From positions 1 to 14,504 of IMG/VR virus record IMGVR_UViG_2529292834_000008: DNA of 14,504 nucleotides; one strand, written 5' to 3'. Shown one piece after another: positions 6,001 through 9,000 of this stretch (the stretch's first letter is position 1; every line of letters begins with the position of its first letter). Source of the DNA: a virus. Its lineage: Duplodnaviria; Heunggongvirae; Uroviricota; Caudoviricetes. The position numbers are program-made.

Positions 6001-9000
6001 ATTCATTGCTTCCTCCCAAAATTGTAGGGGATGGCATCTTATTTGCCGTAGCTGATGGTGTAGGTTCATACACTGGTGCCAGTCAGGCTTCATCAATGGC
6101 AATTGCTGAACTTTCAGCATTGACAAGCTTATCTTTTGACACAGTTCCGGATGTATTTGATGAAGTTAAGCGAAAGGTTATGTCGTTAGCTGATGTTAAT
6201 GATGAGTTCGATAAAGCTGCTACTACACTTACGTTTTGTTATGTTTGTGATAGCGGAATTATTATTGGTCATATTGGTGATTGTCGTTTGTATTGCATTG
6301 GAGAGAAGAAAGCATACCAATTGACGAAGGACGATACCAGGCATCAGATGCTAATTGATCAGAATATTTTTAAACCCAGAGATTTGAAGGATAAACCGGG
6401 CAAAAATATCTTAACGACGGCTATAGCCTCAAATGTTGATATGGAATACGACTGTGATTTTATCACATGGAAAGATTTACCTAGTATTAACGGGGTATAT
6501 CATCTGTGTATCATGTCTGATGGGGTTCATAACGTTTGGGAAAAACGCCCCAGATTTACATCAAATACGATGAGTAATAGTCAGAAGTTTTCTAATGGCA
6601 TTTTGCGTCGTATAGAGAGAGCCGGACCTGATGATGACTTTTCTTTAGTAAGTATAATGGTGCGTGTGACGTCAGATTAGTTGTATAAACTCAGTAGGGA
6701 ATGCTAATTTCACATACAACATAGTTAAAGAAAACTTAATTTTAATGTAAAAAGGCTGCCCTCAGGCGGTCTTTTTATGCTCGAAAATTGATGCAGTACG
6801 TTAAACGCGCTGGTGGTTGCGAATACCGGTCTTTCAGCTTGCTGGCTTTTTAGACAAGAGTTATTGGTATGTCACGTTAACCAGAAAAGGGAAAAAGACA
6901 TGCTAAAACAGCAGGATATGACCGAAACCGCCAGAGTGGTGTTTAATGAATTAAGCGTCACCGAACCGGCGACCGTCGGGGAAATTGCGCAGAATACTTA
7001 CCTTTCACGCGAACGCTGCCAGTTAATCCTGACCCAGCTTGTTATGGCGGGTCTGGCAGATTATCAGTTCGGTTGTTACAGACGCCTTCTGCAGTGAAGG
7101 CTTTTTAATTTGTGGTAATGGGCGGCTGGTGGGTGTTAGCGGCACCTGCCAGCCATCTGCTCATGCGTTGGGGTCACAAGCAAACCTCAGGCCCATCTGC
7201 TTTGCGCAAAAGCAGTATGAGCCTATCAGAGAAGTGCTTATTGATCTATGACTAATACTGTAAAAATATCCAGTTGTGAGTTAATCAACGCTGATTGCCT
7301 GAAATTTATCCAGACCTTACCGGAAAACTCTGTCGATCTGATAGTCACAGACCCGCCATACTTTAAAGTGAAGCCCGAGGGCTGGGATAACCAGTGGGAG
7401 GGCGACGATGATTACCTGAAATGGCTGGACCAGTGTCTGGCGCAGTTCTGGCGGGTACTGAAGCCTGCCGGAAGTCTTTACCTGTTCTGTGGTCATCGCC
7501 TGGCATCTGACACCGAAATCATGATGCGTGAGCGCTTTAATGTGCTGAACCACATTATCTGGGCGAAGCCGTCCGGACGCTGGAACGGGTGCAATAAGGA
7601 AAGTCTGCGGGCGTATTTTCCGGCAACAGAGCGCATTCTGTTTGCAGAACATTATCAGGGACCGTATCGCCCGAAAGATGATGGCTATGTGGCACAGGGG
7701 CGCGAGCTAAAACAGCACGTCATGGCCCCGCTGATTTCTTACTTTCGTGATGCGCGTAAATCACTGGGAATAACGTCAAAACAGATAGCGGAAGCCACCG
7801 GAAAGAAAAACATGGCTTCGCACTGGTTTGGTACCAGTCAGTGGCAGTTACCGAACGAGGGTGATTACAACAAATTGCAGGCGTTGTTTGCGCGTGTTGC
7901 GGCAGAAAAACATCAGCGCGGGGAACTGGAAAAACCACACCACCAGCTGGTCAGCACATACAGTGAGCTGAACCGGCAGTATACGGAATTGCTGAGTGAA
8001 TATAAAAATTTGCGGCGGTATTTCGGTGTGACGGCGCAGGTTCCGTACACCGATGTCTGGACGCATAAACCGGTGCAGTACTATCCAGGGAAACATCCGT
8101 GCGAAAAACCGGCAGAAATGCTGCAGCAGATAATCAACGCGAGCAGTCGTCCGGGAGACCTGGTTGCAGATTTTTTTATGGGTTCAGGTTCAACGGTAAA
8201 AGCGGCGATGGCACTGGGGCGTTGTGCGATTGGTGTTGAGCTGGAGACAGGACGTTTTGAACAGACAGTCAGGGAAGTTCAGGATTTAATCGTTTGAAAC
8301 GGATGAGATTGCAGAATTAATTACGCACCATTATTATTCTGCTCCCGGCCCTTTAGCTCAGTGGTGAGAGCGAGCGACTCATAATCGCCAGGTCGCTGGT
8401 TCAAATCCAGCAAGGGCCACCAACCGTCACCAGTTCATCAGGAAAGAGCGTCAACCCTTTAAGTTGAGTGTGCGAGGTTCGAGTCCTCGGTGGCGGGCCA
8501 GTGCCGACTTAGCTCAGTAGGTAGAGCGACTGACTTTTAATCAGTAGGTCACCAGTTCGATTCCGGTAGTCGGCACCATATGCGGGTATCGTATAATGGC
8601 TATTACCTCAGCCTTCCAAGCTGATGATGCGGGTTCGATTCCCGCTACCCGCTCCAGCATTTGAAATAAGCCTTATTGTATTGCAGCACTGGCGTATTTT
8701 TTATTACGTGGGAGCAGGTTGTTTTAAGAGACATTCTGTTCTCTGGCTATGATTTGAGGCCAGGTTAGCCTCAGTGCTGATTTTTTTTACGACAGCAGAA
8801 TGGTGCATTATCGGTGGAGATTTTGTATTTCCTGGCAGGGTCGGTAATGCATCATTCTGATGTTGTAAGCATCGCTCAGAATAACGTTGAGATTAATCGC
8901 GTACTAAGCAAAACTTGGAAATACATCCTTAACCGCCGCACCAGGCGGTTTTTTTTATTCATTTTTTTCATGGCTCGCTACGGCGGGCCTTTTTCATATC

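Follow-up and report, generated by a model that had tools for sequence, protein, structure and literature searches.

A late-region tRNA array of a lambdoid Escherichia coli prophage, with a crossover inside an argN-derived UUU gene that is probably a relic

The window analysed here, a stretch of 14,504 nucleotides from IMG/VR virus record IMGVR_UViG_2529292834_000008, is part of a lambdoid Escherichia coli prophage and carries four closely packed tRNA genes (slots 1 to 4) in its late region. The array is recombinant within slot 2 (8424-8500), and with modest confidence this gene is regarded as a probable relic that decodes very weakly or is dead in decoding. Most of the array is ordinary: it is a prophage tRNA array akin to the well-known one of Shiga toxin (Stx) phages, and its members are copied from host genes. 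What is new is that two slots hold anticodon-shifted alleles, in a recombinant array whose crossover lies inside a tRNA gene. New is also that the element at 8424-8500, termed degenerate in the initial annotation of the window, turns out to be one subtype of a C33/UUU allele (Lys*) that is very common and is treated inconsistently by annotation pipelines.

Structure and ancestry of the array genes

tRNA genes in the window were located with ARAGORN and scored with the Rfam covariance model RF00005 (gathering score 29 bits). Annotations by the Prokaryotic Genome Annotation Pipeline (PGAP) were taken from genomes with identical sequence. Four tRNA genes were found by ARAGORN, all on the plus strand and with no others in the window:

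8347-8422, plus strand, slot 1: tRNA-Ile2, anticodon CAU, ileZ allele (ARAGORN; RF00005 72.5 bits; PGAP tRNA-Ile)
8424-8500, plus strand, slot 2: argN-derived tRNA-like gene, anticodon UUU (ARAGORN Lys(ttt); no RF00005 match)
8503-8578, plus strand, slot 3: thrU body with anticodon UUU, Lys by anticodon (ARAGORN; RF00005 74.2 bits; PGAP tRNA-Lys)
8582-8656, plus strand, slot 4: tRNA-Gly(UCC), copy of glyT (ARAGORN; RF00005 65.6 bits)

The spacers measure 1 nt (8423), 2 nt (8501-8502) and 3 nt (8579-8581), and the CCA end was read from the sequence of all four genes. Slots 1, 3 and 4 passed RF00005, in agreement with ARAGORN. The initial annotation had placed three well-formed tRNAs (CAU, UUU and UCC) 1-3 nt apart; all coordinates and anticodons that it gave match ARAGORN exactly. 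Minus-strand Rfam matches (Plastid-ycf2 and others) scored below their own gathering scores and were discarded as antisense images of the tRNAs.

Direct reading of slot 2 confirmed the C8 (8431), the C33 (8457) and the atypical anticodon loop CCUUUAA noted before; the near-universal U8 and U33 are thus both absent. The gene further has U11-G24 and U4-G69 pairs, an encoded CCA and a UUU anticodon but G73, where the main Lys* allele has U73. It keeps G18-G19, the T loop GTTCGAGTC and the 3' CCA, with AUCAGGAAA as D loop and CGAGG-UUCGAGU-CCUCG as T arm. When slot 2 was searched against RF00005, no match was obtained even at E values up to 10, and the best model of the clan was tRNA-Sec (16.7 bits, E=1.2). 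Among slot 2 alleles the RF00005 score falls stepwise, from 45-56 bits for Arg alleles over 40-44 bits for the main Lys* allele to <17 bits for the subtype found in the window.

The slot 2 cloverleaf (7/4/5/5, with a 7-nt anticodon loop) consists of standard pairs throughout (21/21, two of them G-U). Its energy was computed directly because minimum free energy (MFE) folding does not discriminate: genuine tRNAs, too, miss the cloverleaf as their MFE structure. The cloverleaf of slot 2 has -22.7 kcal/mol versus -26.0 kcal/mol for the MFE structure, a gap of 3.3 kcal/mol that resembles the gaps of the genuine neighbours. Across 17 slot 2 alleles, 98.3% of the cloverleaf cells are paired and 9 pairs have changed on both sides, versus 2.0 in shuffles. 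The genes of the slot 2 family clearly form a structured tRNA.

A base-for-base alignment is obtained between slot 2 and both argN and the tRNA-Arg(UCU) genes that hold the equivalent position in other E. coli prophages. Its identity is 60/77 to argN of Stx phages and 66/77 to the tRNA-Arg(UCU) of TW10690; with the main Lys* allele it reaches 72/77, and with the E24377A copy 75/77. The tRNAs flanking the Arg allele of TW10690 are identical to those flanking slot 2 in the window. Position and sequence together mark slot 2 as the argN ortholog, which bears out the earlier suspicion of a tie to the Ile-Arg-Arg set of Stx phages once argN and argO are compared. The loop reads CUUCUAA in the Arg(UCU) gene and CCUUUAA in the window. 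An ancestor derived from argN (tRNA-Arg with UCU or UCG) would have gained U33C and C35U to give the Lys* allele, and the window subtype would have gained U8C, C11U and C4U on top. A shifted anticodon UUA (ochre suppressor) within CCUUUAA was considered and rejected: it would need an unprecedented 3+1 loop geometry and no supporting evidence was found.

For recombination analysis, the window was compared with E24377A (Ile2, Lys* with C8, Thr, Gly) and TW10690 (Ile2, Arg, Lys, Gly). In 8121-8469, 14 of 14 informative sites are of E24377A type, and all those in 8487-9059 (>20) are of TW10690 type; none of the informative sites in this three-way comparison is unique to the window. The switch of informative-site type defines one interval:

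8470-8486, T arm of slot 2: recombination crossover interval

By its sequence the window array is cleanly recombined from two known array types, and the crossover falls within slot 2. Homologous recombination joined an E24377A-type left half (ileZ and Lys* with C8) to a TW10690-type right half that supplied the 3' end of an Arg allele, thrU-UUU and Gly. A crossover at this place explains why the array has two adjacent UUU genes and no Arg or Thr gene, and also why slot 2 of the window has U63 and G73. U63 repairs an A51-C63 mismatch present in other Lys* copies.

The remaining slots are close copies of known genes. Slot 1 is identical to ileZ of a Stx2a phage (76/76) and shares 69/76 positions with K-12 ileX, with a compensated 6-67 pair; together with the PGAP call, this upholds its initial classification as an Ile2-type gene. 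Its acceptor stem GGCCCUU/AAGGGCC contains the C4-G69 and C5-G68 pairs, which Ikeuchi and co-workers are said to have described in 2005 as the acceptor pairs used by TilS. Slot 1 is classed by sequence as tRNA-Ile2 type, reading AUA after a predicted lysidine modification of CAU. Slot 4 is identical to K-12 glyT at 73/75 positions; the other two make up a single base pair, changed in a compensated way from C6-G67 to U6-A67.

Slot 3 is identical to K-12 thrU at 74/76 positions, the sole changes being A26G and G35U (UGU to UUU). Its earlier description as a well-formed UUU tRNA is correct in both respects but incomplete, since the gene was copied from host thrU and has a shifted anticodon. Most related prophage arrays have an unaltered thrU in slot 3 (76/76, UGU). 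The UUU allele is rare and was found in 6 of 5,426 complete E. coli genomes plus 6 IMG/VR contigs, with a single haplotype throughout. At sequence level it carries the UUU anticodon and A73; anticodon U34-U35-U36 plus discriminator A73 are what E. coli LysRS reportedly requires of its substrate, according to work by Tamura and co-workers in 1992. The products of slots 1, 3 and 4 are proposed to be working tRNAs, namely Ile2(CAU) for the rare codon AUA, the thrU-UUU copy, and Gly(UCC) for GGA.

Other thrU-type alleles were encountered as well. The Thr(UGU) slot 3 alleles of E24377A (stretch L004, 554-629) and of many Arg-type arrays carry U16C and U20C, and a thrU-body tRNA with UCU (Arg), which in addition to U16C and U20C has G24A and A31G, is present in phage SerU-LTIIb (KU052038; stretch L185, 1122-1197). 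U16C is the substitution by which AriB cleavage of E. coli tRNA-Lys is reportedly impaired (PMC12409363). The thrU scaffold was thus seen with three anticodons (UGU, UUU and UCU), all of the form UNU and reading ANA codons.

Slots 2 and 3 both combine an orthologous body and position with an anticodon of another family, which by sequence would class them as alloacceptor anticodon shifts. Two papers describe such shifts (remolding) from eukaryotic nuclear and mitochondrial genomes (PMC3923123, PMC4783518). As in those cases, the body is kept and the anticodon family changed, from Arg UCU to UUU in slot 2 and from Thr UGU to UUU, or to UCU in SerU-LTIIb, in slot 3. Unlike the eukaryotic cases described there, the shifts seen here are alleles segregating among close prophages of one bacterial species and not fixed differences between species.

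Three known systems served for comparison. The ileZ-argN-argO array of Stx lambdoid phages (Stx2a_WGPS8, 933W type) occupies the same late-region place, after Q and before the lysis genes, and shares slot 1 (ileZ, 76/76) and an argN ortholog (slot 2, 60/77) with the window. It consists of Ile2, Arg (UCG/UCU) and Arg (UCU), whereas in the window slot 2 has UUU and C33 in place of UCG or UCU, the third gene is a thrU copy with UUU instead of argO, a fourth gene (the glyT copy) is added, and no stx genes follow. The K-12 operon thrU-tyrU-glyT-thrT contains the closest host relatives of slot 3 (74/76, thrU) and slot 4 (73/75, glyT); in contrast to the operon, the phage pair lies 3 nt apart without tyrU in between, and its thrU copy, through G35U and A26G, would read Lys codons by anticodon. 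Phage T5's tRNA-Lys(UUU), like slot 2, is a phage-borne UUU tRNA that differs from host tRNA-Lys at positions read by the nuclease AriB: slot 2 has C16 and lacks U39-C40-A41, and T5 tRNA-Lys has C16 and A39-C40-C41. T5 tRNA-Lys is canonical (U8, U33, A73), whereas slot 2 has C8, C33 and G73 and stems from a tRNA-Arg gene.

The Lys* allele among prophages

Lys* was defined as the slot 2 form with the loop C/U32-C33-U-U-U-A-A; it is common in E. coli and Shigella prophages. Two scans of IMG/VR yielded about 146 alignable arrays among the matches listed, of which 112 had a Lys* loop and 33 the loop CUUCUAA (Arg). Array types in the first scan, again counted among the matches listed, were as follows:

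Ile2-Lys*-Thr-Gly: 62
Ile2-Arg-Thr-Gly: 27
Ile2-Lys*-Arg(argO): 6
Ile2-Lys*-Lys-Gly (window type): 5
Ile2-Arg-Lys-Gly: 3

The intermediate loops CUUUUAA and CCUCUAA were not found among the matches listed, including those of a scan anchored on the T arm. In complete E. coli genomes, the 52-nt core of Lys* was present in 796 of 5,426 (~15%), with an exact match in 685. Among GTDB species representatives the Lys* anticodon arm occurred in E. coli and Shigella flexneri only, so no deep divergence is available for covariation within Lys*. The allele was found behind at least eight different promoter-region sequence families, and it is present in three phages with their own GenBank phage records (PhiR47_1, vB_EcoM-606R7 and vB_EcoS-689R5; the genomes of two of them are partial).

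In its main form Lys* has U8 and C11; this allele, which has the A51-C63 mismatch, reaches 40-44 bits with RF00005 and is annotated as tRNA-Lys by PGAP. The C8 subtype, to which slot 2 of the window belongs, makes up about one quarter of Lys* copies among the matches listed and is skipped by PGAP. The view of 8424-8500 as a degenerate member therefore holds in part: the gene fails the tRNA models, but it is no one-off product of decay, being a subtype of an allele present in ~15% of genomes. Broken derivatives of Lys* also occur, with a 1-nt deletion in the D stem, a 7-nt deletion in the anticodon arm, G18A, G24A/U or C31G.

Among the matches listed, stem substitutions in the Lys* lineage comprise 7 that preserve pairing, 3 that break and 1 that repairs a pair; the corresponding numbers of pair-keeping and pair-breaking events in the neighbours are 3/4 (slot 1), 1/6 (slot 3) and 5/4 (slot 4). 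Non-exact core copies amount to 14% of records for Lys* versus 6% for ileZ, a comparison confounded by copy number. Taken together, the constraint tests (stem events, nucleotide diversity per slot, fraction of exact copies) are underpowered or confounded and favour neither a pseudogene nor a functional gene.

The ileZ-type core of slot 1 was found in 3,040 of 5,426 complete E. coli genomes (56%), and a single genome may hold as many as 10 copies; the spread of lambdoid tRNA arrays therefore goes far beyond that of Stx phages. Several decay variants of the array were seen besides: a gene with a glyT body, a CUUACAG loop and a deletion in the acceptor (L125), Lys* with the 1-nt D-stem deletion followed by argO (L014, L023 and L085), and the 3' half, standing alone, of a thrU-like gene with UAU (L186). 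A literature search for ileZ/argN/argO returned no paper describing these slot alleles.

Function of slot 2

Slot 2 of the window is rated more likely dead or very weak in decoding because it has lost U8 as well as U33, one position more than the main Lys* allele, and because its score drops below 17 bits. The combination of C8 and C33, the stepwise fall of the score, the omission by PGAP and the occurrence of broken Lys* derivatives all point to a crippled gene. The copy would still fold as a tRNA-like unit and would probably be processed along with its neighbours. Defectiveness of the whole prophage was dropped as an argument for relaxed selection because the window has intact lysis and terminase genes.

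Several observations weigh against a dead gene. Slot 2 keeps its 21/21 pairs, G18G19, the T loop, U36-A37-A38 and an encoded CCA, and stem substitutions in Lys* mostly preserve pairing and are no worse than in the genuine tRNAs next to it. Lys* is the commonest slot 2 allele among the IMG/VR matches listed and stands behind at least eight promoter families, and the C8 subtype alone reaches about one quarter of its listed copies. This frequency and spread, and the absence of intermediates among the matches listed, are unexpected for a dead gene.

A different role, which we hold to be quite unlikely, is that of an RNA that is made but does not decode. It could be a tRNA-shaped processing spacer, ensuring that RNase P/RNase E cut the closely packed neighbours correctly, or a decoy for anticodon nucleases or modification enzymes that binds them without being consumed. 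Such a role would agree with the loss of U33, critical for decoding, and of U8 in the core from a gene whose secondary structure is perfectly preserved, and with the spacers of 1-3 nt, through which the 5' leader of each tRNA is the preceding tRNA. Slot 2 is also kept in nearly all arrays of the family among the matches listed, and competition by overexpressed viral tRNAs has been raised as a possibility in the study of AriB (PMC12409363). On the other hand, arrays without slot 2 exist (e.g. SerU-LTIIb, methylase-tRNA-tRNA), so that processing does not strictly depend on it, and variants with a deletion in the anticodon arm or D stem have persisted.

Codon supply was evaluated with 16 window genes and 19 host genes. 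Values are given per 1000 codons for the kinase and PP2C phosphatase genes, all window genes and host genes, in this order, followed by the odds ratio (OR):

AUA: 24, 8.5, 3.9; OR 6.2 (kinase and PP2C versus host, p=8.5e-6)
AGA: 16, 6.0, 0.7; OR 8.4 (window versus host)
AGG: 14, 6.0, 0.5; OR 11.2 (window versus host)
ACA: 22, 14.1, 4.6; OR 3.1 (window versus host)
GGA: 12.0, 11.9, 6.6; OR 1.8 (window versus host)
AAA: 43.9, 36.5, 35.6; OR 1.03 (window versus host)
AAG: 25.9, 16.0, 14.5; OR 1.11 (window versus host)

The enrichment of ATA in the kinase and phosphatase genes, stated in the initial annotation, was recovered (24 versus 3.9 per 1000 in the 19 host genes); other window genes have 5.6 AUA per 1000, and the OR for all window genes is 2.2. 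Codon supply agrees with the CAU and UCC genes and with Arg(UCU) and Thr(UGU) as the ancestral genes but leaves the two UUU genes unexplained, because AAA and AAG were not found to be enriched in the 16 window genes relative to the 19 host genes. The UUU genes replaced Arg(UCU) and Thr(UGU), whose codons AGA, AGG and ACA are the most enriched, and sister arrays retain both of these tRNAs. A single cluster of K-12 already contains at least four tRNA-Lys(UUU) genes.

The suggestion that the array matches the codon usage of prophage accessory ("moron") genes accordingly survives for the CAU and UCC genes and not for the two UUU genes. Its extension to the whole array, both UUU genes included, is improbable. 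AUA in the kinase and PP2C genes and GGA in the window (11.9 versus 6.6) do match the CAU and UCC genes, but AAA and AAG stay close to their frequencies in the host, which is itself supplied with tRNA-Lys(UUU), the highest ORs (8.4, 11.2 and 3.1) belong to codons of tRNAs lost here, and the double-UUU layout is a product of recombination.

The alternative given most weight, though we still consider it doubtful, is that Lys*, possibly including its C8 subtype, is a working lysine tRNA on an arginine-tRNA scaffold that escapes defence nucleases. The nucleases in question (PARIS AriB, Toprim nucleases of the P2 Old type, and PrrC) deplete tRNA-Lys(UUU) during infection, and Lys* would keep decoding of AAA/AAG alive for the phage, as T5 tRNA-Lys does. 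Cleavage of tRNA-Lys by AriB is abolished by U39A and impaired by A41C and U16C (PMC12409363). P2 Old cuts thrU and requires paired CNG motifs at 28-30 and 40-42 (PMC12445682), Thr tRNAs are cut by Gifsy-1 HepS once lambda J has triggered it (PMC13043305), and with a phage tRNA-Lys infection is rescued from a PrrC system (PMC11555353). The T5 tRNA-Lys is PARIS-resistant; it experimentally resists AriB and rescues infection (PMC11464382, PMC12409363).

Resistance was scored as absence of the AriB site U36AAUC/A41, of U16 and of the paired CNG motifs required by P2 Old. Slot 2 is free of these features, with U36AAGUU41, C16, and CAA/UUG in place of CNG at 28-30/40-42. Its C33 adjoins the classical PrrC cut site, 5' of U34, and was counted in favour of resistance. 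The likeness to the resistant T5 tRNA-Lys (likewise C16, and A39-C40-C41) argues in the same direction, as does the array Ile2-Lys*-Thr-Gly, the commonest among the matches listed, which carries both prime target specificities of AriB. The main Lys* allele passes RF00005 and is called tRNA-Lys by PGAP, and Lys* is present in PhiR47_1, vB_EcoM-606R7 and vB_EcoS-689R5. Its distribution is that of a young allele at high frequency in many backgrounds, and codon demand cannot account for the UUU gene.

A working Lys* is opposed by the almost invariant U33 of working tRNAs: T5 tRNA-Lys keeps U33 and A73, and in Lys* these positions are C33 and either U73 or G73. The A51-C63 mismatch is present in the main allele, the copy in the window has lost U8 as well and is not recognised by the tRNA model, and broken derivatives are frequent. 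AriB also reads features outside the anticodon arm that are still undefined (PMC12409363). Charging of Lys* by LysRS is hypothetical and its resistance a prediction from sequence. Slot 3 and the host genes thrU and lysT have the full AriB site and U16, and slot 3 also has both CNG motifs; the window prophage thus holds, beside slot 2, a UUU gene that by sequence should be sensitive to AriB and Old. An adaptive explanation of the slot 3 UUU allele itself was not adopted, as it is weakened by the rarity of the allele (a single haplotype) and by these retained target motifs.

For the window copy we keep to a probable relic. The wider proposition, that E. coli lambdoid prophages recoded a tRNA-Arg (argN slot), and perhaps rarely thrU, into a lysine decoder and that Lys* is an unrecognised anti-defence tRNA, is judged rather unlikely. 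If it were true, Lys* in ~15% of complete genomes would be a temperate-phage anti-defence tRNA that arose through an anticodon shift and not through mutation of a lysine tRNA. On a more speculative note, the G GGA AAG frameshift in the tail chaperone of lambda-like phages might be tuned by a variant tRNA-Lys in combination with tRNA-Gly(UCC).

Evidence on phage tRNAs has so far come mainly from virulent phages such as T5, and lambdoid prophage arrays are very common. These arrays are evolutionarily fluid, with capture of host tRNAs, switching of the middle anticodon base, among anticodons for ANA codons, on unchanged bodies and recombination inside tRNA genes. Annotation of the C33/UUU allele of the argN slot is inconsistent: it is tRNA-Lys in hundreds of genomes and is silently skipped in others. 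A functional Lys* would represent a new route to nuclease-resistant tRNAs; a non-functional one would make hundreds of "tRNA-Lys" annotations in RefSeq pseudogenes.

Prophage context and transcription

The array sits between the Q, kinase, PP2C and DNA methylase genes and the holin, endolysin and terminase genes, as expected for the phage tRNA cluster initially proposed. The surrounding features are:

1310-1635: complete hok/sok type I toxin-antitoxin module (sok, 122 bits in Rfam, at 1310-1485; hokD frame at 1480-1635)
4342-5031: Q, reached after hok/sok through doc, DUF968 and rusA in gene order
5176-5940, plus strand: Ser/Thr kinase (Pfam Pkinase, E=2.8e-33)
5937-6680, plus strand: PP2C phosphatase (Pfam PP2C_2, E=2.1e-14)
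7248-8297: DNA methylase, directly preceding the tRNA array in gene order
8309-8337, plus strand: probable sigma-70 promoter, TTGCAG (8309-8314), 17-nt spacer, TATTAT (8332-8337), 9 nt before slot 1
8754-8774 (plus strand, first one 3' of the array), 8931-8950, 8972-8989 and 9081-9096: terminator-like hairpins (consensus scan)
9122-10156: two holins and an M15 endolysin, after the tRNA array
11497-14093: terminase

A 511-base stretch with the array is 100% identical in four complete genomes, including the O6:H16 strain 2014EL-1346-6. In the genomes with these identical 511 bases, PGAP annotates tRNA-Ile, tRNA-Lys and tRNA-Gly only, leaving 8424-8500 unannotated. Among complete genomes, the best match extends over 73% of the window, with 96% identity. 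The prophage of 2014EL-1346-6 matches 1290-9424 only, at 99.8%, and the unmatched parts (1-1289 and 9425-14504) point to a mosaic prophage not represented among complete genomes. That the window is the defective prophage of 2014EL-1346-6 was ruled out on the same grounds and by its intact holin, endolysin and terminase genes.

The site at 8309-8337 is probably the array's own promoter. It was not called by the consensus promoter scan because its first hexamer matches just 3/6 positions; the layout TTGnnn-17-TATTAT-9 nt-tRNA recurs in at least eight otherwise divergent upstream sequence families. The array would presumably be transcribed as a single precursor and cut into tRNAs by host processing enzymes.

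In 8100-9200 the consensus scan returned 6 terminator-like sites versus 1.2 expected from shuffles. No convincing open reading frame (ORF) was found in the 465-nt gap between tRNA-Gly and the holin gene, and ORFs overlapping 8541-8808 were rejected as short and accounted for by the tRNA sequences. The position between array and holin gene, with its cluster of terminator-like sites, is the place of the toxin genes in Stx phages.

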